Positions 22,059 to 43,736 of a stretch of 43,736 nucleotides of DNA are shown piece by piece. The notes below the pieces were generated by a model. It was not told the origin of the DNA, made no database searches, and worked only from the letters and a program-made list of their open reading frames with translations. Position 1 is the stretch's first letter; the number at the start of each line of letters is the position of its first letter. The DNA comes from a virus. The DNA is taken from the UHGV virus genome UHGV-0197631. One strand, written 5' to 3'. Made by a program: the position numbers and the translations under genes.

Positions 22059-22684
22059 GCGTTAGTTTCTCCACAGTCACGACACGCCACGGCGCCCGGA
22101 GCTGCACACTCGCGGGCGTCATTACTTTCTGAAATGCAAAAGATTTTGTAGACCAGTGCTGCATGCTCCTGCAGCTTCGAAATTGAGAGATACAGCTCGT
22201 CGTTAATTGCTGTCTGCTCGTGTGGCTCCACTACCCCATCTTCGATTGCCGAACGAATCTGCTTTGAGTAACTCCCGATCTGTTCGATGACTTCCAGCAG
22301 GCGCTGGTTTATATCGGCGTTCTCTACTTCCTCAATTTCAGGAAGCGATACGAACACCCCACCAGCAGACTGTGCGACAGCATCCGCAATGTAGTGAGTG
22401 CCAGCTGCGCGCTGTAAAACCATTGCCCATCCCAGCGGGAAAATCTGATCGCCATCGGCACGAAGGCGGTTAAATAATGCGTTCTCTGTTACATCCAGCC
22501 AGTCAGCAGCTTCAGCGTAACCACCCGGCAACGCCGCGATAGTTTTTCTGACAGCTTTCACGTACCACTCAGGCTGTTTTTCTACTTTCCAGTGATGCTT
22601 ACCCACGGTTAACTCCTCGTTTCTGTGGTTACGTTTACGCAACTGAACCGCTAACTTTTGAATAGCACTCTGGTAATCCATCAT
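22055..22684 (-). CDS. phage regulatory protein (CII/YdaT-like position), identity uncertain
   Basis: Long ORF downstream of cro; start tentatively at MMDYQ (ATG 22684); position corresponds to cII/ydaT of lambdoid and Rac-type prophages. Confidence 0.35.
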
Positions 22685-22898
22685 TTGGATTTGGATAAAT
22701 ATCAGGACGCAGCTCATGGGGGGTTACGGACCAGTTCCCCAGCTCACAAAGTTGTAAAACTCGTTCCGACGGGACTTGATTGTTAATTACCCAATTAGCG
22801 ACAGATTGAGTAGATTTAAAACCAAAGCGACGAGCTACTTCAGATAAAGACTTTCCCGCAGCCTTTACTGCTTTCTCGGTGTAGTTTTGAGATGACAT
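22635..22898 (-). CDS. cro: Cro-like HTH repressor
   Basis: 87 aa HTH protein divergent from the cI gene across an operator-containing intergenic region. Confidence 0.65.
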   Translation of the reverse strand: MSSQNYTEKAVKAAGKSLSEVARRFGFKSTQSVANWVINNQVPSERVLQLCELGNWSVTPHELRPDIYPNPNDGLPECYSKVSGSVA

Positions 22899-22930: not shown

Positions 22931-22968
22931 GCTACTTAAAGTAGCAAATTGCAACTACTTAAAATAGA
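22931..22968. promoter_or_regulatory. OR-like operator region (17-bp palindrome TGCTACTTAAAGTAGCA plus degenerate copy)
   Basis: Perfect 17-bp palindrome at 22930-22946 and related CTACTTAAAATAG 20 bp downstream, between divergent cro and cI. Confidence 0.5.
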
Positions 22969-22969
22969 A

Positions 22970-23710
22970 ATGACGAGCGTATGTGATGTGAGTAATCTTC
23001 TACCTATGGTAGAAGAACAGAAGTATCCAGATTTCGCCAAGAGACTAAACGAGTTAATGACAAACAAGGGAATTTCTGTCACCCAACTCAAAAGTCTTGT
23101 TGGCGTTACATATGAAATGGCGCGGCGATACACAATCGGCGCAGCGAAGCCTCGTGCCTCTGTCATGAATAAACTTGCGTTGGCTCTGGGGGTATCGGCT
23201 TCATATTTAGAATATGGTGTTGGCGAGAGAGAAGGATGTAAGGAAATGGCAAGCATCCCCAATCCAACAAAACCCGACGTATACAGGATAGAAGTTTTAG
23301 ATCTTAGCGTTAGCGCAGGACCTGGAACCTATATGCTTTCAGACTATGTTGATGTGCTCTACGCCATTGAGTTCACAACAGAACATGCCCGTTCTCTTTT
23401 CGGTAACCGTTCTCAGGATGATATTAAGGTTATGACTGTAAATGGCGATAGTATGTCCCCTACTCTCGTTTCCGGAGATCGACTGTTTGTCGACATTTCT
23501 GTTCGTCACTTCCAGACTGATGGAATTTACTCTTTCGTTTACGGTAAGACTTTTCATGTTAAACGTCTTCAAATGCAAGGTGACAAGCTAGCCGTTCTTT
23601 CGGATAACCCTGCCTATGAGAAATGGTACATCGATGAAAAATCGCAGGATCAGCTTTATGTAATGGGCAAGGCGTTGATTCATGAGTCAATAAAATACAA
23701 TCGGTTATAG
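22970..23710 (+). CDS. cI: CI-type repressor (HTH_XRE + S24 LexA-like peptidase domain)
   Basis: N-terminal HTH, C-terminal Ser/Lys dyad context (NGDSMSPT ... HVKRL); ORF opens at TTG 22949, ATG candidates at 22970 and 23006. Confidence 0.75.
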   Translation: MTSVCDVSNLLPMVEEQKYPDFAKRLNELMTNKGISVTQLKSLVGVTYEMARRYTIGAAKPRASVMNKLALALGVSASYLEYGVGEREGCKEMASIPNPTKPDVYRIEVLDLSVSAGPGTYMLSDYVDVLYAIEFTTEHARSLFGNRSQDDIKVMTVNGDSMSPTLVSGDRLFVDISVRHFQTDGIYSFVYGKTFHVKRLQMQGDKLAVLSDNPAYEKWYIDEKSQDQLYVMGKALIHESIKYNRL

Positions 23711-28347: not shown

Positions 28348-28697
28348 TGGAGCCATACAGCCTCACACTCGATGAGGCCTGTCATTTTCTCAAGATATCC
28401 AGACCGACTGCCATTAACTGGATACGCACAGGGCGTCTTCAGGCAACACGCAAAGATCCCACTAAGAATAAATCTCCTTACCTCACAACACGACAAGCCT
28501 GCATTGCGGCTCTTCAGTCTCCGCTGCATACTGTCCAGGTGAGCGCGGGTGATGGCATAACAGAGGAAAGAAAATGTCACTCTTCCGCAGAGGTGAAATA
28601 TGGTACGCCAGTTTCACATTGCCGAACGGTAAAAGATTTAAACAGTCTCTTGGAACAAAGGACAAAAGGCAGGCGACAGAACTCCATGACAAGCTAA
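28347..28697 (+). CDS. xis: excisionase-like HTH protein (Xis)
   Basis: [33 protein letters not shown] is an HTH_17/AlpA-Xis type motif; AGAGGTG Shine-Dalgarno upstream; ORF overlaps the int start, so the true C-terminus is uncertain. Confidence 0.5.
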
Positions 28698-29737
28698 AGG
28701 CTGAAGCATGGCGGGTCAGCAAACTTGGTGAAATACCTGATATAACGTTCGAGGAAGCGTGTGTCAGGTGGCTTGAAGAGAAAGCACATAAAAAATCACT
28801 GGACGATGACAAAAGCCGGATCGGATTCTGGCTTCAACATTTCGCAGGAATGCAACTAAGAGACATTACTGAATCAAAAATTTATTCAGCAATGCAGAAA
28901 ATGACGAACCGGCGTCATGAGGAAAACTGGAAACTCAGGGCAGAAGCATGCAGAAAAAAAGGGAAACCTGTTCCAGAATACACGCCAAAACCAGCGTCCG
29001 TTGCAACGAAGGCTACGCATCTTTCATTTATAAAGGCCCTACTAAGAGCCGCAGAGCGTGAATGGAAAATGCTGGATAAGGCACCAATTATTAAAGTGCC
29101 TCAACCAAAGAATAAACGGATCCGCTGGCTGGAGCCCCATGAAGCACAAAGGCTGATTGATGAATGTCCGGAGCCATTAAAGTCTGTTGTTGAATTTGCA
29201 CTGGCAACAGGCTTAAGACGCTCGAACATCATCAACCTTGAATGGCAACAAATAGATATGCAGCGCCGGGTGGCATGGATAAACCCGGAAGAGAGTAAAT
29301 CAAACCGCGCAATTGGCGTTGCGCTGAATGATACTGCATGTCGCGTATTGAAAAAACAAATCGGGAATCATCACCGTTGGGTATTTGTGTACAAGGAAAG
29401 CTGTACCAAACCAGACGGAACGAAAGCGCCAACAGTAAGGAAGATGCGGTATGACGCAAACACAGCCTGGAAAGCGGCGCTGAGACGGGCTGGTATTGAT
29501 GATTTCAGATTTCACGACTTGAGACACACCTGGGCAAGTTGGCTGGTTCAAGCCGGAGTCCCGTTGTCAGTGTTACAGGAAATGGGAGGCTGGGAGTCTA
29601 TCGAAATGGTTCGTCGATATGCTCACCTTGCACCTAATCACCTTACCGAACACGCACGGCAAATAGACTCGATCCTGAACCCATCGGTCCCAAATTTGTC
29701 CCAGTCAAAAAATAAGGAAGGTACAAATGATGTGTAA
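28574..29737 (+). CDS. int: tyrosine integrase (lambda-type)
   Basis: 387 aa; catalytic-region motifs ([10 protein letters not shown] ... RRYAHL); ends 14 nt before the tRNA-Thr-derived att core. Confidence 0.85.
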
Positions 29738-29751
29738 CTTATTGATTTAAA

Positions 29752-29800
29752 TGGTGCCGATAATAGGAGTCGAACCTACGACCTTCGCATTACGAATGCG
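29752..29800 (-). other. att core: 49-nt 3' portion of tRNA-Thr(CGU) (thrW-type), not a complete tRNA gene
   Basis: Reverse complement reads CGCATTCGTAATGCGAAGGTCGTAGGTTCGACTCCTATTATCGGCACCA (anticodon loop with CGT, T-arm, acceptor 3' end, CCA); D-arm and 5' acceptor half are absent. Confidence 0.7.
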
Positions 29801-29984
29801 ACGTTAATATACTTTCAACTGTTTGAATAGTCACTCTAAAACTCATTTTTATCATTATAAAACATACTATTACCATAAATCACCTATTGATTAAAATTGA
29901 CAGGTGTTGATGTTTATTCCCGCAATTTACTTACACCAGCCGTTACATTACTGTAAGACAGAAATCCTCAACTGGAACCAGACT

Positions 29985-31283
29985 ATGGCGCTTTCAAGAC
30001 AAAAACTCACCTTCGAAAGACTTCGCAGATTTACTTTACCGGAAGGAAAAAAACAAACCTTCCTTTGGGATGCGGATGTTACAACTCTGGCATGCCGAGC
30101 AACTAGCGGAGCAAAAGCCTTCGTATTCCAAAGCGTTTATGCGGGAAAAACCCTTCGCATGACCATTGGCAACATTAATGACTGGAGGATTGATGAAGCA
30201 AGGAGCGAGGCAAGACGGTTACAAACATTGATCGATACCGGGATAGATCCGCGAATTGCTAAGGCTGTAAAAATCGCAGAAGCAGCATCTCAGCAGGCAG
30301 AATCACGTAAAACAAAAGTGACTTTCTCCGTCGCCTGGGAAGACTATCTTCAGGAATTGCGAAACGGTATCAGTGCAAAAACCAAGCGTCCATATTCTAC
30401 TCGATACATTGCAGATCACATCAACTTGTCCAGCCGTGGAGGGGAAAGTAAAAAAAGAGGTCAGGGCCCAACCTCAGCTGGACCATTAGCTTGTTTGCTC
30501 GACCTACCGCTATCAGATCTAACACCGGACTATATTGCTGCATGGCTGAGTACAGAAAGACAAAATAGACCGACTGTCACTGCCCATGCTTATCGCCTGC
30601 TGCGTGCTTTCATCAAATGGAGTAATTATCAGAAAAAATATCAGGGAATTATTTCTGGCGATCTTGCACAAGATTACAACGTAAAAAAAATGGTGCCAGT
30701 GTCTGCGAGCAAAGCCGATGATTGCTTGCAAAAAGAACAACTCAAAAGCTGGTTTAGATCCGTGCGTGGCCTTAGTAGCCCTGTTGCGTCAGCGTATCTT
30801 CAGGTGCTTTTACTTACCGGTGCGCGGCGTGAAGAAATTGCGTCACTTCGCTGGTCAGACGTCGATTTCAAATGGGCAAGCATGCGAATTAAAGACAAAA
30901 TCGAAGGAGAACGCATCATCCCTCTCACACCTTATGTTTCTAGCCTATTAAACGCGCTGTCCGCAGCCCCAAATGCTGAGGTAAGTAAGGAGAATTGGGT
31001 TTTCAGAAGTCATAGCAAAAGCGGCAAAATTATTGAACCTCGTTCAGCACACAATCGGGCTTTAGCGCAGGCTGAATTACCGCACATTAGTGTACATGGG
31101 CTACGCCGTAGTTTTGGTACGCTTGCCGAGTGGGTTGAAGTGCCAACTGGTATTGTTGCGCAGATTATGGGCCATAAGCCTAGTGCTCTTGCTGAGAAAC
31201 ACTATCGCCGCCGTCCACTGGATCTGCTGAGAAAATGGCATGAGAAAATTGAGACCTGGATCTTAGAACAGGCTGATATTTGA
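29985..31283 (+). CDS. tyrosine integrase (P4/CP4-57-type)
   Basis: Start at MALSRQKLTFERL; N-terminal arm-binding-like region, C-terminal catalytic region (HGLRRSFGT ... HY); second integrase abutting the same att core. Confidence 0.8.
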   Translation: MALSRQKLTFERLRRFTLPEGKKQTFLWDADVTTLACRATSGAKAFVFQSVYAGKTLRMTIGNINDWRIDEARSEARRLQTLIDTGIDPRIAKAVKIAEAASQQAESRKTKVTFSVAWEDYLQELRNGISAKTKRPYSTRYIADHINLSSRGGESKKRGQGPTSAGPLACLLDLPLSDLTPDYIAAWLSTERQNRPTVTAHAYRLLRAFIKWSNYQKKYQGIISGDLAQDYNVKKMVPVSASKADDCLQKEQLKSWFRSVRGLSSPVASAYLQVLLLTGARREEIASLRWSDVDFKWASMRIKDKIEGERIIPLTPYVSSLLNALSAAPNAEVSKENWVFRSHSKSGKIIEPRSAHNRALAQAELPHISVHGLRRSFGTLAEWVEVPTGIVAQIMGHKPSALAEKHYRRRPLDLLRKWHEKIETWILEQADI

Positions 31284-31418
31284 AAATAAATCGATGTTGA
31301 TTAGTGTTGATTTTATTATAAATCAATTAGTTATAAACAAATCGCTTAGTTGACATCACTAAGCTTTATGGTGACAATTCTTCCACTTTAATACATTAAC
31401 TCAAAGAGGATACATGGA

Positions 31419-31862
31419 ATGAATAATCCAGCTTTTGACATACCAGAGCGGGAGATGCTTATCATCATAGATTCAAATGCTGAATCAACATGTCCAGAAG
31501 TTAATTGGGCCGAATGCGAGGCACAGGTTAACGCTCTGTTTAAAAATGCCTATAGTGAAACTAAATGCTTCATTGCTCGTGCTAAGGTAAGATTCTCGCA
31601 GCACATGAGAAGTATTAGCCGTACAGTTTTGCAATGCTTCTCATCCCCACGTCTTCAATCCAAAAACCGTGCTTCAAGATCTCGCCGTAGCCATAGCTCT
31701 TCACGGAGCAGCGGCCGCTCAGCCAAATCTAGTGATAGTGACAGTTCCCCCTCGGACCCCTTACCTCTTCATAACCTATCTCTAAGTCTTCATTTAAATC
31801 TCTCTTCGCTTTTTTCACTTTTTAGCATGGCTCATACCTCTATCGACGAGGTGATCAAATGA
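31419..31862 (+). CDS. hypothetical protein with Ser/Arg-rich low-complexity C-terminus (possibly degraded)
   Basis: 147 aa; C-terminal half is SRSRRSHSSSRSSGRSAKSSDSDSS..., atypical for a folded protein. Confidence 0.25.
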   Translation: MNNPAFDIPEREMLIIIDSNAESTCPEVNWAECEAQVNALFKNAYSETKCFIARAKVRFSQHMRSISRTVLQCFSSPRLQSKNRASRSRRSHSSSRSSGRSAKSSDSDSSPSDPLPLHNLSLSLHLNLSSLFSLFSMAHTSIDEVIK

Positions 31863-32098
31863 GCGGCATCCTATTATCTCAGTTACCTAAAGATATTCCT
31901 GCATCTTCCCTGATTTACGTAAAGGAAGTCGCCAGCCTTCTCGGACTACAGCCTCAGACGATCAGGAAGTGGATTTGCCATGATTCATTGCCTGAAGGGC
32001 TACCAACACCAAAAAAGCTAAACAGAAAAAACTGCTGGCTAAGAACCGATATTGAATCCTTTATTGCAACAAAGTTTTCAAATAACAGTAAATTCTGA
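31859..32098 (+). CDS. alpA: AlpA-family transcriptional regulator / excisionase-like
   Basis: 79 aa with HTH_17-like motif (YVKEVASLLGLQPQTIRKWI); position after integrase as in CP4-57. Confidence 0.65.
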   Translation: MSGILLSQLPKDIPASSLIYVKEVASLLGLQPQTIRKWICHDSLPEGLPTPKKLNRKNCWLRTDIESFIATKFSNNSKF

Positions 32099-32106
32099 GG
32101 CAAAAG

Positions 32107-33498
32107 ATGGAAAAACTTCCTTACCCAATTGATGCCTTTCCAATAATCATGAGAAATGCTGCCTATGAAGAGCATAATATCACTAAAGCTCCCATGGCAA
32201 TGATAGGGTCTGCAATGTTGAGCGCAGTATCCTTGGCTTGCCAAAGCAAAGTTGATGTAGAAAGGCCTGGAGGACTTAAAGGTCCAACATCTCTTTTTTT
32301 TGTTACAATCGCAGAATCAGGCGAACGAAAAAGTGCAATTGACAAAAATGTATTTTCTGCGATACATGAATGCGAAAAAATGTTCGCACAGCAACACGCC
32401 GAAGAAATGAATTGGTATTCCGGTGCCGTTGAGATCTATGAAGCAGAAAAGAAAGCTCTATTTTCCAAATTAAAAATGCAGATAAAAAAAGGTCTTGATA
32501 CCTCTCAAACCAAAGATGATATCGATGAATTAAATTCAAAAAAGCCTGTCCTTCCCCGTTCACGAAAATTAATCATGAGTGACACCACTCCAGCGGCATT
32601 AAAAGATCATTTATCTGGGGAAGGTCGATCGGTCGGCATTCTCTCAGATGAAGGTGGTGTGGTGTTTGGTGGTTCGGCACTGAATAATCCTTCGCTCATC
32701 AATACAATATGGAGTGGCGGGGATGTACATATTGACAGGAAAAACAGGGCACCAGTGACTATATCTGATGCAAGACTCACATTATCAATTATGGTTCAGC
32801 AAAATTTATTGAATACATTTCAAAGAAGCAATAATAAAATTGCAAAGGATTCAGGATTTAATGCCAGATGCCTATTCAGCCATCCTGTATCAACTCAAGG
32901 GTATCGGCAGATATATAATCCAGTAATATCCAGGGAACATATGCCAATTTTTAACGGACGCATTAAGGAACTCATTTTATCTGGTTTACATAATGACAGA
33001 GTGCTGTTGCAATTTTCACCAGCCGCAGCCAGCGCATGGATCGACTGGTATAATTTCATTGAAACTCAAATGGCCTCAACAGGAGAACTATTTAATATCA
33101 GAGATTGTGCATCAAAAATTGCCGAGAACACAGCAAGAATCGCAGCATTAATGCACTTCTTCAGAGGTGATGAGGGCGATATAACCCTCATAGCTATGGA
33201 TGCGGCCGAAAAAATCAGCACATGGTATCTCGAAGAATATCAACATTTTTTCACAAGTAGCAATAATAGCAACGACGAAAATGAACTATTCGACTGGATT
33301 ATACATTATTGCCGTTACCATGGTCTGGCACGTTTGAAGAAAAACATCATTCTTCAATATGGACCAGTTCGACTCAGGAGTAAAAAGACTATAGAACCAT
33401 TGCTGAATAACCTTGCGTATACTCAGAAAATTCTTTTTGAAACTAGGGGAAGAACCACTTACTTAATCCCAGTAAAATTAGGATCACGGCATTTATAA
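32107..33498 (+). CDS. DUF3987-like protein (YfjI-like, P4-type island replication-associated)
   Basis: 463 aa; synteny int-alpA-DUF3987 matches CP4-57-type islands. Confidence 0.55.
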   Translation: MEKLPYPIDAFPIIMRNAAYEEHNITKAPMAMIGSAMLSAVSLACQSKVDVERPGGLKGPTSLFFVTIAESGERKSAIDKNVFSAIHECEKMFAQQHAEEMNWYSGAVEIYEAEKKALFSKLKMQIKKGLDTSQTKDDIDELNSKKPVLPRSRKLIMSDTTPAALKDHLSGEGRSVGILSDEGGVVFGGSALNNPSLINTIWSGGDVHIDRKNRAPVTISDARLTLSIMVQQNLLNTFQRSNNKIAKDSGFNARCLFSHPVSTQGYRQIYNPVISREHMPIFNGRIKELILSGLHNDRVLLQFSPAAASAWIDWYNFIETQMASTGELFNIRDCASKIAENTARIAALMHFFRGDEGDITLIAMDAAEKISTWYLEEYQHFFTSSNNSNDENELFDWIIHYCRYHGLARLKKNIILQYGPVRLRSKKTIEPLLNNLAYTQKILFETRGRTTYLIPVKLGSRHL

Positions 33499-33690
33499 GT
33501 TAAATAGAATGAATCTAACTGCAGAGTTATTTTTACGTAAAAAACAAACTCTCAGTGAAATAAATGACACAAAATCAAGTTGGATAGGTATTATTACACC
33601 TGACCTTATTATTTATATCTATTCATCTTGTTATATATACATTATACAACATCAACTGAATTAATCCTTATAGATAGATGGGTATATACT

Positions 33691-34308
33691 ATGAAACAAT
33701 ATCAAGGATCACATGGTCTTCATGTGGCAGCCTGGCGTGATAGCATAATTGATGTTCTTGACAATGCTTCAAATGAATTTAGTCGCATTATGGCTGTGCG
33801 AGTAGACCTTCACCATCCAAGGATATTGGATAACGGAGACACTGTTTGCTGCTTCCCTAATCTCAAGTCAGGTGAAATTTCGAGGTTTATTAACTCCCTA
33901 AAAGCGATGCTTGCTGCTCATGAATATCGACGAGCACAGAATGGAACCCGAATCTACCCAAACACTTTACGCGATATGTGGGCTAAGGAGTACTCTCAAT
34001 CAGGAAAATGCCATTATCATGCCTGTCTTGTATTTAATAAAGATGCATATTACCACCTTGGTAGCTATGATGATGATTGCCTGAGGGGCATGATTATAAA
34101 CGCCTGGTACAGCGCATTAGGGTTACAGCCTGAGGATTGTCCTGGGCTGGTTCATTTCCCTGAAAACGGGAAATATATTCTAGACAAAAATAAACCAGGT
34201 TTTATTTTTGATTATCATGCCCTACTAAAGCGGCTCGAATATCTTACCAAGGTTGACTCGAAGGTTTTTGGGGAAGGTGATAGGAATTTTGGGTGCAGTC
34301 GGGGTTAA
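33691..34308 (+). CDS. inovirus Gp2-family protein (YfjJ-like)
   Basis: Start at MKQYQGSHG; synteny after DUF3987 gene. Confidence 0.5.
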   Translation: MKQYQGSHGLHVAAWRDSIIDVLDNASNEFSRIMAVRVDLHHPRILDNGDTVCCFPNLKSGEISRFINSLKAMLAAHEYRRAQNGTRIYPNTLRDMWAKEYSQSGKCHYHACLVFNKDAYYHLGSYDDDCLRGMIINAWYSALGLQPEDCPGLVHFPENGKYILDKNKPGFIFDYHALLKRLEYLTKVDSKVFGEGDRNFGCSRG

Positions 34309-34361
34309 TCATTTAACTAGGCCTTGTTATACATATTAGCAAGGCCTAAAGCTCAACTAAC

Positions 34362-35336
34362 CTACAGAAGACGAATTAACTCTTCCCGTGAAATCCTGCG
34401 ACGATGTACCTCATCATGGCAAACATTACAGAGAGTAATTAAGTTATCCAGTGTATTTTCTCCGCCATCAGCATGATGTTCAATATGATGTAACTCGAGG
34501 AATGTTCTGGGGTCATTTGCGATTTTACGGGCATGAGACCAGTGGCAGTGCCTGCATGCATGATGGTCACGCTCAAGTACAGCGACACGTACAGGATCGG
34601 GGATCTTTCGGTCATGCACTTCAGCCTGTCGATCTTCCTCGAGTAAATAAGCTCCGACTTCTAGCTCCGGTCTACCGGAATTTTTGGTGGCGATTGGCCA
34701 GCCATCTTCTGTACGTAGCTCACGTGTTCGTCGCGCCCACTCCTTGCTATCGTTTGCAAGGTATCGTAGTTCTTCGCCAGTCACGGGACGGCCAACGTTC
34801 TTACGCAGATAAGACAGAATTTTATCTTTCGTGGAGATTTTGCTTCGTCTGAGGACATTAGCTTCATTCCACCGCAGAGCTGCTTCCCTGTCCTGTTCTG
34901 CTGTCATCAGCGCATAAACGTCGGTTTTAAGAACGTTAATCGCACTGGCATGGAGCTCTTCCAGTGTAACCTCTCCTTGTTCGATCATTTCCTTCAACGT
35001 AGTGCCGCTTAATACGGACCAACCAAACTGCACACGCAGCTCTCTGATCCTTCTGGCATATTCACTGATACCCGCAACAACCATCAGTTCGTCACCATGG
35101 ATGATGACGCCGGGATATTTGAGTAAATAAGCCAGAATTCGGTCACGGGCTGAATTGCAATTCTCATCATTCATCAAAGAACTGCCTAAATCCCGCAGCA
35201 AATGATTGGCGGGGATTAATGCCAAAACCTGTTCCCGTAGGGAATCATCCTTGAGCTTAAACTCAAAGTCGGTAATCAACGCCAGAAGCTGTTTACGCAG
35301 CGTTTCCGGTACGCTCTTCTTCGATCTTCTCGCCAT
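34362..35336 (-). CDS. HNH endonuclease with tandem N-terminal repeat domains (putative restriction endonuclease)
   Basis: C-terminal HNH motif (HHACRHCHWSH...ELHHIEHHADGGENTLDNLITLCNVCHDEVH); two similar internal segments (EYARRIRELRVQFGWSV / EWARRTRELRTEDGWPI); overlaps the methyltransferase gene by 44 nt. Confidence 0.65.
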   Translation of the reverse strand: MARRSKKSVPETLRKQLLALITDFEFKLKDDSLREQVLALIPANHLLRDLGSSLMNDENCNSARDRILAYLLKYPGVIIHGDELMVVAGISEYARRIRELRVQFGWSVLSGTTLKEMIEQGEVTLEELHASAINVLKTDVYALMTAEQDREAALRWNEANVLRRSKISTKDKILSYLRKNVGRPVTGEELRYLANDSKEWARRTRELRTEDGWPIATKNSGRPELEVGAYLLEEDRQAEVHDRKIPDPVRVAVLERDHHACRHCHWSHARKIANDPRTFLELHHIEHHADGGENTLDNLITLCNVCHDEVHRRRISREELIRLL

Positions 35337-36423
35337 TTTGAATTAGGTATTCCATTAAATTGAGAACGTAGGTCGCAATCTTCTGCGCAAAAACTGGTGG
35401 TACTGCATTGCCAATTTGCCTTGCGATTTCGGTTTTTGAACCCACAAAAACAAATTCATCCGGGAAACTCATCAGGCGCGCGGCTTCACGATGCGTAATT
35501 GGACGATGTTGCTCTGGATGTAGATAACGCCCCTTCTCAGGCTTAAAGAACTCCGTGCGGATCGTGACAGAAGGCCTCTCCCACCACAAACGGCCAAACA
35601 AATCCGTTCCACCCGAGGTTTTTTTAATCCAGCAGGCAGGGGTAATGTCAGGTCTATTCTTTTGCAAATCAAACCGGTTTCCCCCTACCGGAACAGCTCG
35701 GTAGCGTTCCTGCGAAAGCGCAGTTGGATTTCGACCAAAGTGGAGATCTAATGGGGGTGGAAGATCACGCACCTCAGTCCCAACCGGCTCAGGCAAATCA
35801 CCTATAAAATCTCTGACTGTCAGCCAGGCTGGTAGATCCGCCCCCTTATCAGGATTCTGGTGCGACTGTACAGGTGGGAACGTTGGGATGCTATTCAGCA
35901 GGAATCGCTCTTTTTTAATTCCAATTGCAATAGCACGTTTGCGCGTCTGCGGAGCCCCGTAGTCGGCTGTGTTAAGGACAGAAGGATTCAGAAGCAGAAA
36001 ACCCATGCTTTCAGCACGAGCACAAATGTCCTGAAATTCATCACTGGACAAGAGGCCCGGAACATTTTCCATCACAAATACAGAAGCAGAAGACCTCTCA
36101 ATGATATCCATATACGGCTCCCAGAGCGCCCGTCGATGGTCCCTTTCTCGGTTCTTGTTGAGCAGGCTGAATCCCTGGCATGGCGGGCCGCCGATAACAA
36201 TATCAGCCTCAGGAATGCTGTTTTCAGCAATCCACTCTTCGATGTTCGCTACAATGCCATGCTCGCCAAAGTTGGCATTGTATGTACTGATAGCCGCCTT
36301 GTCATTGTCCAGAGCTAGGACGCTTTCAAAATGAGCGCCATTTTCCCCCTTCATGAAGCCGCAGGATAAACCGCCAGCGCCACAAAACAGATCAATGACT
36401 TTTAATTTATTGATTTTACTCAT
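35293..36423 (-). CDS. DNA (cytosine-5)-methyltransferase
   Basis: Motif I FCGAGG, motif IV PPCQGFS, ENV motif; 376 aa. Confidence 0.85.
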   Translation of the reverse strand: MSKINKLKVIDLFCGAGGLSCGFMKGENGAHFESVLALDNDKAAISTYNANFGEHGIVANIEEWIAENSIPEADIVIGGPPCQGFSLLNKNRERDHRRALWEPYMDIIERSSASVFVMENVPGLLSSDEFQDICARAESMGFLLLNPSVLNTADYGAPQTRKRAIAIGIKKERFLLNSIPTFPPVQSHQNPDKGADLPAWLTVRDFIGDLPEPVGTEVRDLPPPLDLHFGRNPTALSQERYRAVPVGGNRFDLQKNRPDITPACWIKKTSGGTDLFGRLWWERPSVTIRTEFFKPEKGRYLHPEQHRPITHREAARLMSFPDEFVFVGSKTEIARQIGNAVPPVFAQKIATYVLNLMEYLIQNGEKIEEERTGNAA

Positions 36424-36734
36424 TAAAATATAATCCTAGTTCCTACATACATATTCATGGTTAAGTATATCATAATGCGAAACTGTATGTATCCACAGTA
36501 ACAAGGTGATACGTTGTGAAAAATGCTTGGAAGTATATTGCTAGCATCATATCCCTTAATATCGATGAAAAGCAGTTTAATTATTGCTCGTAGCGGACTT
36601 TTCGACGCTTCGGGCCGTCCGCTCAGTGCCATTAGCAGACATTTTTGATATGTGGTTCCTACTAACCTGATTGTCTTAAAGAGTTTATAATTGTGCTGGA
36701 AAAGAAATTCTGATCATTATGTAGGAGAAACGTT

Positions 36735-37571
36735 GTGGCTAACGAAAATACCGAGTACGAGAAACTTACCCAAGAGATCTACCAGGCCATATGCAATGCT
36801 GAGGGAGTTAAGAATTTATCAGTTCAGCATAATGTAAAAGTCCCAGGAAAATCTGGCTGTAACCACCAGATAGATGTTTACTGGGAATTTGAAATAATGG
36901 GTGTAACACACCGCGTGGCCATCGAATGTAAAAACTATTCAAGCGAAGTTTCTGTTGGGAAAGTACGCGACTTTTTCGGTGTACTACATGATATCAGTAA
37001 TGTGAATGGTATTTTCGTGACCAAAGTTGGTTACCAAAGTGGAGCTGTAAAATTTGCCAATCACTACGGTATCAATCTGAAAGAAATACGATTCCCAACA
37101 GCAACAGACTGGAAAGGAAGAGTAAAAGATATTGTCATAACAATCACTGCGTTCTTTGCTAATATCAAAGAGCGAAACATTCATTTTGATTTTGAGTGGA
37201 TCCGTGAAAACACAAATGTGAAAGAAGGAGATCGCCTAGTACTTTCAGGCATGGCTGATGAGATAAAAATAGTTGATGCGAATGGAGAACTAATCACAAC
37301 CCTATACGACATTGAAAATGAACTCCCGCGAGATGTTGAGATAATTGATAAAACCTTTGAAAAAAAATTCAATGAGGCATTCATTACTACTCCATCTGGC
37401 GATAAATTTAAAATTTACGGGATCAGCTATTTGTACGATGTTGTTTCTGAATCTGAAACATCGATTAGCGAAGGCGATTTGATTGCTCGTGCAATACTCA
37501 AAGATGTCGGTTCGGGAGCAATAAAATTCTTTGACCAAAGCGGGAATATTCGTGATGTTCGGGATGTGTAA
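36735..37571 (+). CDS. Mrr-like PD-(D/E)xK nuclease domain protein with uncharacterised C-terminal domain
   Basis: GTG start with AGGAGA Shine-Dalgarno; N-terminal QIDVYWEF...VAIECKNY (D...ExK) with Mrr-type context; ~150 aa C-terminal region of no recognisable family; AT-rich. Confidence 0.5.
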   Translation: MANENTEYEKLTQEIYQAICNAEGVKNLSVQHNVKVPGKSGCNHQIDVYWEFEIMGVTHRVAIECKNYSSEVSVGKVRDFFGVLHDISNVNGIFVTKVGYQSGAVKFANHYGINLKEIRFPTATDWKGRVKDIVITITAFFANIKERNIHFDFEWIRENTNVKEGDRLVLSGMADEIKIVDANGELITTLYDIENELPRDVEIIDKTFEKKFNEAFITTPSGDKFKIYGISYLYDVVSESETSISEGDLIARAILKDVGSGAIKFFDQSGNIRDVRDV

Positions 37572-37839: not shown

Positions 37840-38868
37840 CTAAGCGTTATCTATGTATTTCAATGCATAGCTTTCGAAGCTGTTTATTTTATTAAAATAA
37901 TCAGGAATAAATGCATGGACAAATGTATCAAGGTCAGTATTAATCGTGTTTGTATTGATTAATTCAATCATGTGTTCAGGTTCGCTGTCCAAAAAGAGAA
38001 TTGCAAGTATGAGACCGAACTTTGGTGCTATTTCTCTAAATATCAAATAAGTAAGTTCACCGTAAGGCTTCACGCTTTCATTCAAAATGCCAGAGATATA
38101 CTCCCTGCCATTCATGCCGCGTTTATTATAGGAATCTATAATTTCGTAAAAATCGCTGCCATCGATATCAACTTCAGGGTCAAAATCATTGAGTGATACA
38201 TCGTTGTTTAGACAATATCTTACTGTTGAAATACACAAGTAAAGAAAAAGAAGGGTTCCCAGACTACCTTGGCGTTTTACTGGATTTCCGGACTCTGATA
38301 GGTATCGATATTGGCAATAGTACGCAATGGTTTCACACAAACTAATATGACGTATCAAGAGACTATCATCATTACAAGCGCGTGATATACTAAAATCAGC
38401 GGCATGACCGAGTTCATGCACAAAGAGGTCTGTAGATGTCACTCCAAATGGATCATCTTGAGTAAAAATGAAATGTTCATCATCTCTGTTGGAAATACAA
38501 AAACCCTCAGAACTTTTTCTGATTTGATTCTCAATATGAAGCCACTCAACCTTGTTCAGATTAACTTTTAGGCAATTCTCAACAAAATCGCGCGCTACAT
38601 TAAATTCACGCTCTGAAATAGGATTGCCTAATGAAGATGGGTCAGTGGAACTCAAACGCTTCAGAAATTCAGAAGAAAAATATAAAGGCGAAACCAGATC
38701 AACAAGAGCCGTGACTGAATTCAGGAGTTTATTGTGCACATCCCCTACAATTTCTTCGCCAGTCCTGTGTAATGCCTCATCAAATTCCTGGAAAGAGTTT
38801 CCATTTTTAGTAGCAATCACGCATTGCGTTTCAAGTTCATAGTATTTTTTTCGCAGTATTGAATGCAT
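37840..38868 (-). CDS. HExxH motif protein (putative metallopeptidase-like), unknown function
   Basis: Single HExxH (VHELGHAAD) in 342 aa; AT-rich; convergent with the Mrr-like gene. Confidence 0.4.
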   Translation of the reverse strand: MHSILRKKYYELETQCVIATKNGNSFQEFDEALHRTGEEIVGDVHNKLLNSVTALVDLVSPLYFSSEFLKRLSSTDPSSLGNPISEREFNVARDFVENCLKVNLNKVEWLHIENQIRKSSEGFCISNRDDEHFIFTQDDPFGVTSTDLFVHELGHAADFSISRACNDDSLLIRHISLCETIAYYCQYRYLSESGNPVKRQGSLGTLLFLYLCISTVRYCLNNDVSLNDFDPEVDIDGSDFYEIIDSYNKRGMNGREYISGILNESVKPYGELTYLIFREIAPKFGLILAILFLDSEPEHMIELINTNTINTDLDTFVHAFIPDYFNKINSFESYALKYIDNA

Positions 38869-39387
38869 AATTCTCACCAAATATAAATTAAGTATATTAT
38901 TTAAGAACGATATCCTTCTTTTGCAGAATCACTATATCATCTTCTTTCTTACTTTGGCAGGTTTAACAATCCGTCTGTAATGTCTAGCATTCTAAATGCG
39001 TTCTATGCCTTTAATGTACCCCTGCTGTCGATGTTATATCACCTTGCTTTTCGGTGTACCGGTAGCGTGATAAGATGCGTATTGAATCATTGACACTGAT
39101 TGATGTAGAACTAGACATCAACTCAACATAAGTTAAATTTTCCCGTCAGAAACGGCCTGCTCGACATTTATTAAAAAAGGCAATATTTGTCCTTTATCAA
39201 CTCAGTTGTTAGCAAAAGTCCGAACCTCCGCTCATCGCTCGAAGCGGTCTGTTGATGTTTACTGTGAAACAGGCAGATTCGTGCAAGTAGCGGACAATGT
39301 AAGAAAAAATAACGGGTCGGACTAACCTTGCGAAGGCTTTCTAAGTCTGTCTGCAAACATCTCTTCAAAAGGCTGAGGCCCTTATTG

Positions 39388-39678: not shown

Positions 39679-39773
39679 CCTAACAATAAACCTGTTTAAA
39701 TATCCAGATAAAAACATTCAATCTGGGTCAAATGAGTGATACAGTTTCACCCATAAGACCCAATGGAGGCAAT

Positions 39774-41207
39774 ATGTCTGAATTTGAATTACTGGCGCAG
39801 GATCTGCTTGAGAAAGCAGAAGCGGAAGAACAACTGCGACAGGAAAATGATAAAAAGCTGCTCGGGCAGGTGCTGGAAATCTATGACCAGAAGTACGTGG
39901 CTGAACTGCTTAGAAAAGTTGGTAAAAATGAGTGGAGTCGCGAGACTCTTAATCGCTGGATTAATGGTAAGTGCTCACCTAAGACGCTGACGTTAGCCGA
40001 AGAGGAACTTCTACGAAAAATGCTTCCGGAAGCGCCTGCACATCACCCTGACTATGCCTTCCGGTTTATTGACCTGTTTGCTGGGATTGGAGGTATACGG
40101 AAGGGCTTCGAAACCATCGGTGGCCAGTGCGTTTTTACCAGTGAATGGAATAAAGAGGCTGTGCGCACATATAAAGCTAACTGGTTTAACGATGCTCAGG
40201 AACACACTTTCAATCTCGATATTCGGGAAGTCACGCTCAGTGATAAACCTGAAGTACCTGAAAACGATGCCTATGCTTACATTAATGAGCATGTGCCGGA
40301 TCATGATGTACTTCTAGCAGGTTTCCCCTGTCAACCGTTCAGCCTTGCGGGCGTAAGCAAGAAAAACTCGCTCGGGCGCGCGCATGGTTTCGAATGTGAG
40401 GCTCAGGGAACGCTTTTCTTCGATGTGGCGCGTATTATACGCGCAAAAAAACCTGCCATCTTTGTTCTTGAAAACGTTAAAAACCTGAAGAGCCATGACA
40501 AGGGTAAAACCTTTAAAGTCATCATGGATACCCTCGACGAACTGGGCTATGAAGTTGCGGATGCAGCTGAGATGGGCAAAAACGATCCTAAAGTTATCGA
40601 CGGAAAGCACTTTTTACCTCAGCACCGAGAACGTATCGTTTTGGTCGGTTTCCGTCGTGATCTGAACATTCACCAGGGCTTTACCCTGCGCGATATTAGT
40701 CGTTTTTATCCGGAACAGCGTCCGTCATTTGGCGAACTGCTGGAACCCGTGGTTGACAGCAAATATATACTGACGCCGAAACTCTGGGAGTATCTCTATA
40801 ACTACGCCAAAAAGCACGCAGCTAAGGGTAACGGATTCGGTTTTGGCCTCGTTAATCCTGAAAATAAAGAAAGCATTGCCCGTACGCTTTCTGCTCGCTA
40901 TCACAAAGACGGGTCTGAAATTCTGATAGACCGTGGCTGGGATATGGCCACAGGTGAAACAGACTTCGCGAACGAAGAAAATCAGGCGCATCGGCCCCGC
41001 AGGCTGACTCCACGAGAGTGCGCGCGCCTTATGGGTTTTGAAAAAGTAGATGGCAGGCCTTTTCGCATTCCTGTGTCAGACACTCAGTCGTACAGGCAGT
41101 TCGGTAACTCCGTAGTGGTGCCCGTGTTTGAAGCCGTAGCCAAACTGCTTGAACCTTATATCCTGAAAGCGGTTAATGCCGATTCGTGCAAGGTTGAACG
41201 AATCTGA
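39774..41207 (+). CDS. ecoRIIM: EcoRII-type DNA (cytosine-5)-methyltransferase (Dcm-like, CCWGG specificity inferred)
   Basis: From [12 protein letters not shown] with GGAGG Shine-Dalgarno; motifs FAGIGG, PCQPFS, ENV; collinear with E. coli Dcm and with M.EcoRII as I recall it. Confidence 0.85.
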
Positions 41208-41240: not shown

Positions 41241-42449
41241 CTATGGAATATCTGCGTAAAGCCCTGTCAGCTCAGCAATAAACGCACCTAGCGTCATTAG
41301 CTCAGCTCTCACCGCCTCCGGGTATTTTTTGTGCAGCGATGATGGCACGACCAATCTGACACCCGACTCCCGCATCTCCCGATATTGAGCCAGAGAAACT
41401 CCCTCTTGGAGTGTAAACAGATGCACCTGATGAATTTTATCGGCCTCATTCAGTATCTGACGCCAGCGATCCTTACAGGTAGTCTTGACTGCCAGCATGC
41501 GCAGATTTTCTACGGGAAACTCAGTATCGTGGTAAGCCCCTGCGGAAGGGAAAAGGAAATCGGGTTTTTTATTACCTTCTGTGATGGCCTGCGTCGCAAA
41601 GTGTCGCAGGCCGTGCTCAATGAATAGATGCTCCAGGTGCAGTTCCAGCGACTTCCCGGCTCTGGATTTACGGCGATTGCTGACAGAATTGGCCAGCGCA
41701 ATAAATTCATCCACAGAGCCAAATCCTTTCCGGATGATATCCAGAACATGCAGTTCCTCAACCAATAGAAATATGTCGTACTCCACGCGCCGGCGGTCAA
41801 GAAGTTGCTCATCCGGATCAAGGGAATTTTTCACATAATGGCTGGCTGCATACTGAATAATTTCACTTCCCGACGGAAAGCGCAGGTGCCAGTCTTCAGG
41901 TAGAATATATTTATGATTTACTGGCGCTTGCTGTAGAGATAGTCCGCCTAGAATCTGTCCTGCGGGGCCGGATATAAGCGCTCCGGGTATAACTTCACCA
42001 ATAGCGGTCTCAATGACGTCCTCTTCATCAGTGCTGGCGCATACCCAAATATTTACTTCCTTACAGTCCCCCCCTTGCTCATCAAGCTTGAAAGCCAGGA
42101 GCGTCAGAGCCCCTGTATTTTCAGGATTCTGAAGTGGGCTGCCTCTACCCCAGCGGGTAATCCTTTTTTCATTCCGGGTTTTACCAAAATGACGGCTGTT
42201 ATAATAAATTGCCCGGGCTTCGCTGTCAGGGCAATCATGCGATGACACATGTGCGGTGAGAAAAACCGAAGGGTTCAGTTCACGGGTATGGTTGATAGAC
42301 GGAAAGAGTTTTTCAACGATACCTGAAGGGATATAAAGCCCTACCTGGTGACCACCTGTTGCGCCGGTATCGTTGGCGGAAAGGCGTTTGATGTAGACGA
42401 AGTAATTCTCACATGCGATCTCAAGTAGCCAGTTGTGGAAAACCGACAT
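41241..42449 (-). CDS. ecoRIIR: EcoRII-type restriction endonuclease
   Basis: 402 aa from MSVFHNWLLEIACENYFVYIKRLSANDTGATGGHQVGLYIP, matching my recollection of R.EcoRII; GGGG Shine-Dalgarno 6 nt upstream of ATG 42449; convergent with the methyltransferase as in the EcoRII system. Confidence 0.85.
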   Translation of the reverse strand: MSVFHNWLLEIACENYFVYIKRLSANDTGATGGHQVGLYIPSGIVEKLFPSINHTRELNPSVFLTAHVSSHDCPDSEARAIYYNSRHFGKTRNEKRITRWGRGSPLQNPENTGALTLLAFKLDEQGGDCKEVNIWVCASTDEEDVIETAIGEVIPGALISGPAGQILGGLSLQQAPVNHKYILPEDWHLRFPSGSEIIQYAASHYVKNSLDPDEQLLDRRRVEYDIFLLVEELHVLDIIRKGFGSVDEFIALANSVSNRRKSRAGKSLELHLEHLFIEHGLRHFATQAITEGNKKPDFLFPSAGAYHDTEFPVENLRMLAVKTTCKDRWRQILNEADKIHQVHLFTLQEGVSLAQYREMRESGVRLVVPSSLHKKYPEAVRAELMTLGAFIAELTGLYADIP

Positions 42450-42607
42450 AAGCATCCCCTGTTACCCTGAAACTCTACTCACCATTTTTTCATGATTATA
42501 TACAAACAGCCAGAAAGGCTGTTACAGACGATTTGATCTGCAACCTATTGGTTAAATTAATGTATCAAAAACGATGGTTTTTGTGACAGTCTTGAAAAGT
42601 CCTGACT

Positions 42608-42632: not shown

Positions 42633-42750
42633 CAATTGACGGGGCGTAACGCCAGGTGTGCAGTCGGCTCCTGACCACGCAATATCAGAAGTCATCTGCA
42701 CCAATCTCGACTATGCTCAATACTCGTGTGCACCAAAGCGAGGTGTGAGC

Positions 42751-43233
42751 ATGGCGTCAGACACATTACCAATTGCCGAGCAGGGCGTGGCCACCCTGCC
42801 CGATGCGGCATGGGCACAGGCCCGGCACCGGACCGAAATCATCGGGCCGCTGGCAGCGCTTGAAGTGGTTGGGCATGAAGCCGCCGATGCCGCTGCTCAA
42901 GCGCTGGGCCTATCCAGGCGGCAGGTGTATGTCCTGATCCGGCGTGCCCGGCAAGGTGCTGGGTTTGTGACGGACCTGGTTCCCGGCCAGTCCGGCGGCG
43001 GAAAAGGCAAGGGACGCTTGCCGGAATCAGTTGAGCGCATCATCCGCGAGTTGCTGCAAAAGCGCTTCCTGACCAAGCAGAAGCGTAGCCTGGCGGCGTT
43101 CCACCGCGAGGTCGCGCAGGCTTGCAAAGCGCAAAAGCTACGGGTGCCGGCGCGCAACACTTTGGCCCTGCGGATCGCCGGCCTCGACCCGCTCAAGGCC
43201 ACTCGCCGCCGGGAAGGGGTCGGTTCCGGCTGA
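42751..43233 (+). pseudogene. tniA: tniA (Tn402/Tn5053-family transposase), truncated after ~160 codons
   Basis: N-terminus IAEQGVATLPDAAWAQARHRTEIIGPLAA...GLSRRQVYVLIRRARQGAGFVTDLVPGQSGGGKGKGRLPE matches TniA from memory; reading frame ends at the inserted Tn3-family inverted repeat. Confidence 0.65.
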
Positions 43234-43253
43234 GGGCGAAATGACACCCTAAG
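43216..43253. repeat. 38-bp terminal inverted repeat of a Tn3-family transposon
   Basis: GGGGTCGGTTCCGGCTGAGGGCGAAATGACACCCTAAG: starts GGGG, ends TAAG, and contains the tnpA stop codon, as in Tn3/Tn21-family ends. Confidence 0.55.
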
Positions 43254-43736
43254 CTTTCGGTTCCTTGGGCCAAAGATATTCGCCAGTCAGTAGAATGTGC
43301 GCCCAGCCCAATGGGGATATGTGGGGAAGAAATTCAGGGGGAACATCCAACCCTTCGTTCCGCCGCTCCGTGACGGCATGACCAAGATGGACGGTATTCC
43401 AGTAAATGATCACCGCAGTCAATAAATTGAGCCCAGCGATTCGGTAGTGCTGCCCCTCTGTCGTGCGATCGCGAATTTCCCCCTGCCTCCCGATACGGAG
43501 CGCATTTTTGAGCGCATGGTGGGCCTCTCCCTTGTTAAGACCGATCTGAGCACGCCGCTGCATGTCCGTATCCAGGATCCACTCAATAATGAAAAGGGTC
43601 CGTTCAATACGACCAACTTCACGAAGCGCAACTGCAAGGTTGTTTTGTCGTGGGTAAGAAGCGAGCTTGCGCAGGAGTTGGCTGGGCCTGATTTTGCCAG
43701 CGGTCATCGTCGCGGCACAACGGAAAATATCAGGCC
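43249..43736 (-). CDS. tnpA: Tn3-family transposase TnpA, C-terminal part (gene continues beyond window end)
   Basis: C-terminal region (LLTAVIIYWNTVHLGHAVTERR...HISPLGWAHILLTGEYLW) typical of Tn3-family TnpA; stop lies inside the 38-bp repeat. Confidence 0.65.
   Translation of the reverse strand, partial: PDIFRCAATMTAGKIRPSQLLRKLASYPRQNNLAVALREVGRIERTLFIIEWILDTDMQRRAQIGLNKGEAHHALKNALRIGRQGEIRDRTTEGQHYRIAGLNLLTAVIIYWNTVHLGHAVTERRNEGLDVPPEFLPHISPLGWAHILLTGEYLWPKEPKA

Follow-up and report, generated by a model that had tools for sequence, protein, structure and literature searches.

A stretch of 43,736 nucleotides from the virus genome UHGV-0197631 (the window) carries two minus-strand genes that probably form a Type II restriction-modification (R-M) cassette, the cargo of a genomic island that has an integrase. 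One gene codes for a C5-cytosine DNA methyltransferase, the other for an HNH protein with a duplicated winged-helix (wH) module, the putative restriction endonuclease. The original prediction of a Type II R-M system built on an HNH nuclease finds good support in comparisons across genomes, namely a C5 methyltransferase beside the nuclease homologue at every informative locus, co-variation of both proteins and a methylase-nuclease (M-R) fusion. The cassette appears to represent an ordinary kind of bacterial anti-phage system, in which the architecture of the nuclease is, as judged from sequence comparison, new, widespread and uncharacterised.

Organisation of the cassette and its methyltransferase

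The methyltransferase gene (35293..36423, minus strand; 376 aa) was assigned by its open reading frame, Pfam and motifs, and the nuclease gene (34362..35336, minus strand; 324 aa) by its open reading frame, Pfam and an AlphaFold2 model. The 3′ end of the former and the 5′ end of the latter overlap by 44 nt (35293..35336, minus strand), and both reading frames run exactly as originally described. A strong Shine-Dalgarno sequence was not found ahead of the ATG of the nuclease gene. From the overlap we infer translational coupling with the methylase made first. The same spacing of both genes (tblastn matches 4914-6041 and from 6001) was observed at six of the nine enterobacterial loci at those coordinates (L002, L004-L007 and L014) and also at L009. 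The intergenic region 5′ of the methyltransferase gene (36424..36734, minus strand) is the presumed operon promoter region. A strict consensus scan of this region revealed no σ70-like promoter, which is an observation against the Type II reading. Sequence similarity upstream of the methyltransferase stops at 36611 in the copy from E. coli and at 36517 in that from Pantoea eucrina. A controller-protein gene is absent from the cassette. Pfam displayed an NTPase domain in neither protein, and apart from vsr no third gene recurs, which corresponds to the independence of Type II systems from ATP or GTP and from specificity or translocase subunits.

Residues 7-351 of the methyltransferase match the Pfam family DNA_methylase (PF00145) with an E-value of 1.3e-59, and the score against TIGR00675 was 166.7 bits (cut-off 100.65). 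The three motifs by which a canonical C5-cytosine methyltransferase had been recognised were located as motif I (FCGAGG, residues 13-18, 36370-36387), motif IV (PPCQGFS, residues 80-86, 36166-36186) and motif VI (ENV, residues 119-121, 36061-36069). They are followed on the same minus strand by motif VIII (QTRKR, residues 159-163, 35935-35949), motif IX (REAARLMSFP, residues 312-321, 35461-35490) and motif X (GNAVPP, residues 338-343, 35395-35412), with the variable target-recognition region at about residues 182-300 between motifs VIII and IX. dN/dS values of 0.01-0.08 for both genes (nuclease 0.05-0.08) point to strong purifying selection. With every catalytic motif present and under such selection, the methyltransferase is predicted to be catalytically competent, and the objection that it might be inactive found no support.

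The window codes for a second, EcoRII/Dcm-like methylase, which was considered as a CCWGG duplicate of the cassette methylase and rejected; the two proteins are 26% identical, have only the catalytic motifs in common and differ by unrelated target-recognition regions. An assignment to Druantia type II from the top PADLOC match, DruM, was also dismissed, as this match reflects generic C5-methylase similarity and the other Druantia genes are absent.

Duplicated winged helices and HNH domain of the nuclease

The AlphaFold2 model of the HNH protein (mean pLDDT 87) consists of an N-terminal helical hairpin, two winged helices and the HNH domain, in this order. The hairpin is built of two long helices (residues 10-53; 35178..35309, minus strand) modelled with a pLDDT above 90, and may serve as a dimerisation element.

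Two similar segments in the N-terminal part had originally been taken as a duplicated DNA-recognition module. They correspond to residues 92-106 and 199-213 and lie within a longer internal repeat, in which residues 62-127 align with residues 168-234 (BLASTP, 42% identity over 67 aa, E 8e-13). The Smith-Waterman score of the repeats was 117 compared with a mean of 23.6 for shuffled sequences (sd 4.4, maximum 48; z = 21), and hhalign of both repeat profiles, built from 35 homologues, gave a probability of 98.8% and an E-value of 1.3e-16. All three methods agree that the internal duplication is real and far beyond chance.

The Pfam winged-helix model HTH_39 matched all 16 family members tested (best E 6.9e-7), and together with the AlphaFold2 model this predicts that each duplicated segment folds into a winged helix that serves DNA recognition. 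The third helix of winged-helix domains usually reads DNA, and in both repeats this helix carries the motif ARRxRELR…GW. Repeat 1 comprises residues 62-143 (34908..35153, minus strand) with the third helix EYARRIRELRVQFGW at 35019-35063 and a variable insertion in the wing (residues 111-139). Repeat 2 comprises residues 168-232 (34641..34835, minus strand) with the third helix EWARRTRELRTEDGW at 34698-34742. Invariant residues in the 35 homologues are R95, R96, R98, E99, L100, R101, G105 and W106 in repeat 1 and W200, R202, R203, R205-E210, G212, W213 and P214 in repeat 2. The second repeat and the HNH domain form the portion common to the window protein and its single-repeat relatives.

The C-terminal HNH motif reported for this protein was recovered by Pfam, as residues 261-313 match the HNH family above its cut-off (E 4.8e-9; 36.7 bits, cut-off 21.4). 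The ββα-metal nuclease domain (residues 247-313; 34398..34598, minus strand) harbors a Cys4 zinc site (C261, C264, C303 and C306) as well as His283/His284, Asn294/Asn298, His307 and His311. None of the 35 homologues deviates at the His and Asn positions of the HNH motif or at three of the zinc-binding cysteines, while the fourth, C306, is kept in at least 90% of them. Catalytic His, Asn and His residues combined with two CxxC pairs place the domain in the Cys4-zinc, McrA-like subgroup of HNH/His-Me finger nucleases. The conserved residues and the low dN/dS suggest that the nuclease is catalytically competent.

Linkage to C5 methyltransferases, mobility and Vsr

Nuclease homologues were surveyed at 80 genome loci from Pseudomonadota, Bacteroidota, Bacillota, Planctomycetota, Nitrospirota, Acidobacteriota and other phyla. 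A C5 methyltransferase adjoins the nuclease in all 78 loci with enough flanking sequence, in four gene arrangements; the remaining two are cut by contig ends, and one of these holds a methylase fragment. The methyltransferase is orthologous to that of the window in 73 of the 80 loci (53-99% identity). Here, the methylase gene precedes an adjacent or overlapping nuclease gene in 38 cases and is separated from it by a gap in 24, filled by a vsr gene in those examined, while eight pairs are divergent and two convergent, the last locus being that from E. coli (L001). Identities to the window pair co-vary between methyltransferase and nuclease with a Pearson coefficient of 0.95 (n = 73). At two loci (L061 and L070) a different, small C5 methyltransferase overlaps the start of the nuclease gene. 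The protein P0133 is a single chain of 714 aa, in which an orthologous methyltransferase (55% identity) is followed by the tandem-wH HNH protein (46% identity). Distant HNH relatives with a single winged helix, on an Acidithiobacillus plasmid, a Halorussus plasmid and in a Blautia phage, also adjoin C5 methyltransferases.

In the window the cassette is cargo of an island with a P4-type integrase and AlpA, YfjI and YagK-like genes, where it lies beside other restriction genes. This mobile defence island contains at least two stacked cytosine-methylase R-M systems, of which the cassette is one. The part shared with other genomes at the nucleotide level extends over 33907..36611. Positions 33907-36517 are 94.9% identical to Pantoea eucrina (L002), where the flanks are unrelated, and positions 29734-36611 are 91.5% identical to E. 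coli (L001), with the island backbone included. Judged from these alignments, the cassette moves between genomes as a 2.6-kb unit.

A homing endonuclease or a regulator had been named as an objection to the Type II reading. The HNH protein might in this case be a homing or otherwise selfish enzyme, or a DNA-binding regulator devoid of nuclease function, and merely travel with the methylase gene. The nuclease gene is situated between the YagK-like gene and its methylase in the integrase island; it lies outside any intron or intein, is not a free-standing gene between phage genes and does not adjoin phage terminase genes. Phage records displayed just one weak match to the family among 50,697. 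HNH residues and zinc cysteines are conserved in the 35 homologues, and the dN/dS of 0.05-0.08 indicates that the nuclease is maintained. Moreover, the linkage to a methyltransferase persists over four gene orders and one displacement by a non-orthologous methylase, which would not be predicted of a hitch-hiking homing enzyme. A homing enzyme or regulator is thus extremely improbable, and the objection remained unsupported.

A vsr gene is found in or beside the cassette at 43 of the 80 loci, and at least three sources contain single-chain Vsr-HNH fusions, namely a Clostridiales MAG (L030), a Pandoraea plasmid (L085) and P0118. These fusions could indicate a repair-linked role, an observation against restriction of the Type II kind. 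In the literature searched, we found no Vsr fused to a restriction nuclease. A second observation of this sort is the identity of 55-60% across phyla, which exceeds that usual for restriction enzymes. The nuclease might accordingly belong to an m5C maintenance and repair module instead of defence, in which it would, together with Vsr, nick or process the target sites of the methylase, for example when deaminated or hemimethylated, and act as a site-specific nickase for very-short-patch repair. The frequency of vsr, the fusions, the unusually high conservation and the single HNH domain per chain would fit such a role. However, Vsr is absent from the window and no vsr adjoins the cassette in the closest enterobacterial copies (L002-L010 and L014), though one is present in Sodalis (L012), which argues that the nuclease has no need of it. 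Vsr genes are known companions of m5C R-M systems, as in Dcm-Vsr and in several m5C R-M systems with vsr, which accounts for their location beside the cassette as well as for the chance of a Vsr-HNH fusion. The cassette resembles these pairings in that Vsr, the remedy for m5C deamination, so often accompanies its C5 methylase, and differs from them in the window copy, which lacks it. The location in defence islands, horizontal transfer as a unit and the architecture of P0133, that of a combined restriction-modification enzyme, also argue against a repair module, which we consider improbable.

Proposed mode of action and relation to known systems

In a Type II system the methyltransferase would methylate C5 of cytosine within a short specific site of the host DNA. 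The HNH protein would bind the same site when unmethylated via its two homologous winged-helix domains, each presenting the arginine-rich third helix (ARRxRELR) to the DNA, and the C-terminal, zinc-stabilised HNH domain would cleave. As methylation would block binding or cleavage, only incoming unmethylated DNA would be cut. The two near-identical third-helix motifs may each recognise one of two similar half-sites. Their full site would contain G/C and, given the single methyltransferase, is likely palindromic. Dimerisation through the helical hairpin might bring together two HNH domains for a double-strand break. The 44-nt overlap might make translation of the nuclease dependent on prior translation of the methylase, and with such coupling the cassette would need no controller protein to become established safely in a new host.

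In 416 kb of host sequence flanking the 80 loci, palindromes showed just their general depletion, and no recognition site emerged from this avoidance analysis. GCCGGC had the largest z (-10.5), calculated without a control set, but numerous other 6-mers have a similar observed/expected ratio (0.57 for GCCGGC). Matches of the nuclease to NaeI are below the Pfam cut-off and absent in close family members, so that this similarity is a lead and not evidence of homology. Avoidance of GCCGGC and the NaeI matches together amount to no more than a hint of GCCGGC-like sites.

Winged helices that sense non-methylated CpG exist in eukaryotes. The duplicated module could be a prokaryotic counterpart, a single-chain 'pseudo-dimer' that reads unmethylated cytosine-containing half-sites and thereby allows one polypeptide with one HNH domain to address a symmetric site; where Vsr is fused, the same reader would guide very-short-patch repair of deaminated sites. 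This extension is tentative and rather unlikely. If true, restriction would be physically coupled with repair of damage arising from the system's own methylation.

The nearest solved relative of the HNH domain is EcoKMcrA (PDB 6ghc), a Type IV enzyme dependent on m5C or 5hmC, and its methylation dependence is an observation against the Type II reading. EcoKMcrA is the best match to residues 245-323 (phmmer E 2.9e-8) and the top Foldseek match, with the same Cys4 zinc arrangement, and PADLOC mREase_IV matches the nuclease with an E-value of 5.5e-9. [quoted passage not shown] However, the similarity to McrA is limited to the HNH domain, with a whole-protein TM-score of 0.23. EcoKMcrA is a stand-alone enzyme with an N-terminal modified-cytosine reader (NEco), whereas the N-terminal 240 residues of the window protein consist of the hairpin and two winged helices and its gene invariably has a C5 methylase partner. 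Searched against the PDB sequences, a tandem-wH profile matched no solved protein, DpnI included. Members of the family live in E. coli, Salmonella enterica, Klebsiella and Yersinia, all of them Dam-positive hosts in which dependence on G6mATC would turn the enzyme against its own cell; the same would hold for an m5C-dependent enzyme encoded next to an m5C methylase. The published wH-HNH fusions, a further point against the Type II reading, are Type IV enzymes in which a single winged helix N-terminal to HNH senses 6mA in GATC; they are mostly stand-alone, lack a methyltransferase within three genes in 87% of cases and show toxicity solely in Dam-positive cells (Helbrecht et al. 2024, PMC11037411). 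In contrast, the window family has a duplicated HTH_39-type winged helix and obligate C5 methylase linkage (78 of 78 informative loci and one fusion), and is neither a stand-alone gene nor incompatible with Dam-methylated host DNA. We therefore regard a Type IV nuclease as very improbable.

For the Type II reading, Hpy99I offers a parallel, as its neighbouring methyltransferase is an m5C enzyme and its structural zinc site (CxxC…CxxC) resembles that of the window nuclease. FokI and NaeI use winged-helix or CAP-like domains for DNA recognition; they are PD-(D/E)XK nucleases, while the window protein is an HNH enzyme. The Type IIP HNH enzymes Hpy99I, PacI and KpnI, whose mechanisms have been solved or studied, share the ββα-metal core and a protecting methyltransferase encoded next door, and Hpy99I and PacI are homodimers (PMC4081073). 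Outside the HNH core these small proteins display no detectable similarity to the window nuclease with its separate N-terminal two-wH module, and none of them surfaced in the PDB sequence searches. Searches of the PDB with the whole protein and the tandem-wH profile returned the HNH core only and no solved whole-protein homologue, and NCBIfam gave generic or sub-threshold matches. A Salinigranum plasmid match was rejected as the published SruGXI, because its accession differs and it covers no more than a short piece of HNH. Neither a characterised homologue of the whole protein nor, in the literature searched, a paper on the family was found; its more than 3,000 database proteins are labelled just 'HNH endonuclease', the NCBI name of every homologue listed.

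Among the PADLOC Type II REase models PDLC03478 and PDLC03503 (about 219 aa), the former matches the nuclease weakly over the second winged helix and the HNH domain (E 4e-7). It also matches the single-wH HNH proteins of Acidithiobacillus, Priestia and Halorussus plasmids and of the Blautia phage, which has two separate HNH genes; a C5 methylase adjoins all of these except the Priestia protein. These relatives comprise about 200-290 aa with one winged helix, to which the window family adds a second copy and the N-terminal hairpin. If confirmed, the family would be a large, phylum-spanning group of Type II restriction enzymes with the uncharacterised architecture of hairpin, two winged helices and HNH. 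Characterisation of one member could give a new or usefully different cytosine-methylation-sensitive specificity, and the protein would be a tractable model of how a winged helix tells C from m5C. Compared with the Type IV enzymes, it would also demonstrate that the combination of winged helix and HNH serves either modification-blocked or modification-dependent restriction.

The methylase-nuclease gene pair

Two overlapping open reading frames constitute the cassette, both on the minus strand. The upstream gene (35293-36423) encodes a C5-cytosine methyltransferase of 376 aa and the downstream gene (34362-35336) an HNH protein of 324 aa; the 44-nt overlap was found as the original prediction had placed it. 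Residues 7-351 of the methyltransferase match the Pfam model DNA_methylase (E 1.3e-59) and its TIGR00675 score exceeds the model cut-off. Motifs I (FCGAGG, 13-18), IV (PPCQGFS, 80-86), VI (ENV, 119-121), VIII (QTRKR, 159-163), IX and X (GNAVPP, 338-343) are present, confirming the predicted canonical C5 enzyme. No solved or named relative was found for the target-recognition region, which is unrelated to that of the EcoRII/Dcm-like methylase encoded in the window.

Residues 261-313 of the HNH protein match Pfam HNH with 36.7 bits (cut-off 21.4), and two CxxC pairs are present (C261/C264 and C303/C306). The suspected duplication in the N-terminal part was borne out by three approaches and is longer than the peptides originally quoted. 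Segments 62-127 and 168-234 are 42% identical across 67 aligned positions (E 8e-13), the Smith-Waterman score of the pair lies 21 standard deviations over shuffles, and hhalign of the two repeat profiles (35 homologues) gave a probability of 98.8% (E 1.3e-16). In an AlphaFold2 model (35 homologues as input, mean pLDDT 87) a hairpin of two helices (10-53) is predicted at the N-terminal end and a beta-beta-alpha HNH domain (247-311) at the C-terminal end. Between them lie two predicted winged helices joined by a linker helix (150-164). The first comprises helices 63-73, 81-88 and 93-102 and then strands, its wing being interrupted by a variable insertion at 111-139; the helices of the second are 169-179, 187-193 and 199-209. 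HTH_39, a winged-helix model of Pfam, was matched by each of the 16 family members tested (E 6.9e-7 at best). The third helix, the one with which winged helices usually read DNA, carries a conserved ARRxRELR…GW motif in both repeats, the arginines of which are invariant in the homologue alignment.

Pairing with C5 methylases and Vsr

More than 3,000 proteins match the nuclease at E ≤ 0.001, the best 120 with 60-99% identity, and every listed one that has a name in its source is called simply 'HNH endonuclease'. Comparison of the N-terminal 240 residues with 1.84 billion representative proteins yielded just 498 related clusters, so that the tandem winged-helix module is essentially confined to this family. 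Selecting one genome per species resulted in 80 loci (nuclease identity 54-99%) from Pseudomonadota, Bacteroidota, Bacillota, Planctomycetota, Nitrospirota, Acidobacteriota and further phyla. In 73 of them an orthologue of the window methylase (53-99% identity) adjoins the nuclease gene. Besides the E. coli copy, the methylase gene is located upstream and adjacent or overlapping (38 loci), upstream with a gap (24), divergent (8) or convergent (2). At two acidobacterial loci (L061, 5064-6017; L070, 5172-5993) a smaller, non-orthologous C5 methylase of 273-317 aa overlaps the nuclease start, and the usual modification partner has apparently been displaced. Two others end at contig ends, one of them retaining a methylase fragment. 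Hence, the nuclease is accompanied by a C5 methylase at each locus that is informative. Identities of methylase and nuclease to the window pair are correlated (r = 0.95), and both genes show dN/dS values of 0.01-0.08 when compared with close relatives. A homing endonuclease or pure regulator does not fit, being at odds with the gene context and with the invariant catalytic residues.

P0133, from the representative-protein library, is by sequence a natural methylase-nuclease fusion of this family: its single chain of 714 aa comprises a methylase orthologue (5-360; 55% identity to the window protein) followed by the two winged helices plus HNH domain (395-699; 46%). The arginine motif is kept in its second winged helix but lost from the first (…EYDCLIHELRAEQGW…).

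At 43 of the 80 loci the cassette contains or adjoins a gene for Vsr, the very-short-patch repair endonuclease, and this gene fills the gap between methylase and nuclease genes in 10 out of 10 examined loci of that type. In at least three unrelated sources Vsr is fused in frame to the tandem winged-helix HNH nuclease (452-483 aa), namely a Clostridiales MAG (L030, 5503-6954), the Pandoraea oxalativorans plasmid pPO70-1 (L085, 3081-4439) and protein P0118. RefSeq labels the fusion plainly 'Vsr', and the literature searched contained no description of a fusion between a restriction nuclease and Vsr. These fusions and the high conservation of the nuclease would agree with a role of the nuclease in a repair module. 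Against this, Vsr is known to accompany m5C systems, and no vsr gene is present anywhere in the window or next to the cassette in the closest enterobacterial copies (L002-L010, L014).

Genomic setting

The window from 1 to approximately 29,700 looks like a prophage, with a CII-like regulator (22055-22717), an S24/CI-like repressor (22949-23710), a DUF2303 gene and an integrase (28574-29737). A second, P4-type integrase (29904-31283) directly follows and opens the defence island, indicating two integrative elements in tandem. AlpA-like, YfjI/DUF3987 and YagK/YfjJ-like genes come next, followed by the cassette. ARAGORN detected no tRNA genes in the window. The GC content drops from about 0.55 to 0.37-0.50 over 22-41 kb. 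Among 5,426 complete E. coli genomes a single one contains the cassette, within the same island backbone and followed by further defence genes. Nucleotide similarity to this copy stops at 36611, and that to Pantoea eucrina is limited to 33907-36517 with unrelated flanks, which indicates transfer of the cassette as a single piece of about 2.6 kb.

Divergent from the methylase gene is a gene (36735-37571, +) for a 278-aa protein with a PD-(D/E)XK Mrr_cat domain (17-115, E 4e-10), whose C-terminal half (~160 residues) matched no family. As the E. coli similarity stops at 36611, this gene is outside the shared cassette; if its product is modification-dependent, it might conflict with the two adjoining m5C methylases. 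A 346-aa reading frame (37840-38880, -) in the stretch of lowest GC content (0.37-0.38) encodes an HExxH-like motif (VHELGHAADF). Pfam and PADLOC gave no match to it and its similarity to oligoendopeptidase F is very weak (E 0.0075); a defence or toxin gene of the metallopeptidase type is a possibility. A second complete m5C restriction-modification system is found in the island, consisting of a 491-aa Dcm/M.EcoRII-like methyltransferase (39732-41207, +; PADLOC MTase_II, E 8e-235), only 26% identical to the cassette methylase, and a convergent gene (41241-42455, -) for a 404-aa protein with EcoRII-N and EcoRII-C domains (E 6e-61 and 1e-70). Judged by eye, the last two reading frames (42658-43233, +; 43249-43707, -) resemble transposon pieces, the N-terminal HTH of a TniA/Mu-like transposase and the C-terminal end of a Tn3-family transposase (…HISPLGWAHILLTGEYLWP…), which suggests that the EcoRII-like system came in with a transposon.

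Proposed mode of action and relation to known systems

The reading best supported by these sequence comparisons is the one originally proposed, a Type II restriction-modification system of an m5C methylase and an HNH nuclease. Intact enzymes, obligate co-evolving pairing, purifying selection, location in a mobile defence island and the natural fusion all argue for it. Each winged helix would use its arginine-rich third helix, near-identical in the two, to recognise one half of a site that contains cytosine; the two halves would be similar, and the site is probably palindromic since there is just one methylase. Methylation at C5, in the major groove, would prevent this recognition, and dimerisation through the N-terminal hairpin would allow two HNH domains to cut both strands. 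No strong ribosome-binding site precedes the nuclease ATG; together with the 44-nt overlap this would couple nuclease synthesis to methylase translation and thereby stand in for a controller protein. Palindrome-avoidance statistics were uninformative as to the recognition sequence.

The most serious rival is a modification-dependent Type IV enzyme like the winged helix-HNH proteins in PMC11037411. However, the distinction made there between stand-alone and methylase-associated proteins puts the present family on the methylase-associated side, and the family lives in Dam-positive enterobacteria. An McrA-like m5C-dependent nuclease would be self-toxic beside an m5C methylase, and likeness to EcoKMcrA is restricted to the HNH core.

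Distant relatives with a single winged helix and HNH domain also adjoin C5 methylases, on an Acidithiobacillus and a Halorussus plasmid. Blautia phage NatCom_27009 (L084, 726-3605) has, one after another, genes for Vsr, for two such HNH proteins (225 and 221 aa) and for a C5 methyltransferase; the HNH pair may correspond, as two unfused genes, to the duplicated reader of the window protein. Two distant relatives, P0221 (145-186) and L086 2785-3663 (66-110), showed sub-threshold matches to the NaeI Pfam model (E 2-3e-4, ~21 bits against a cut-off of 25) over model stretch 169-213, within its C-terminal DNA-binding domain; close family members had no match to this model. The PADLOC Type II REase model PDLC03478 is weakly matched by the window nuclease and its single-winged-helix relatives. 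A bolder and less likely reading would make the duplicated module a pseudo-dimer within one chain that recognises unmethylated cytosine and that, in some lineages, is coupled physically to Vsr repair. The nuclease architecture is uncharacterised among the sources searched and belongs to a large, widely transferred family, while the system itself is of an ordinary kind, the class of which defence-annotation tools already recognise.
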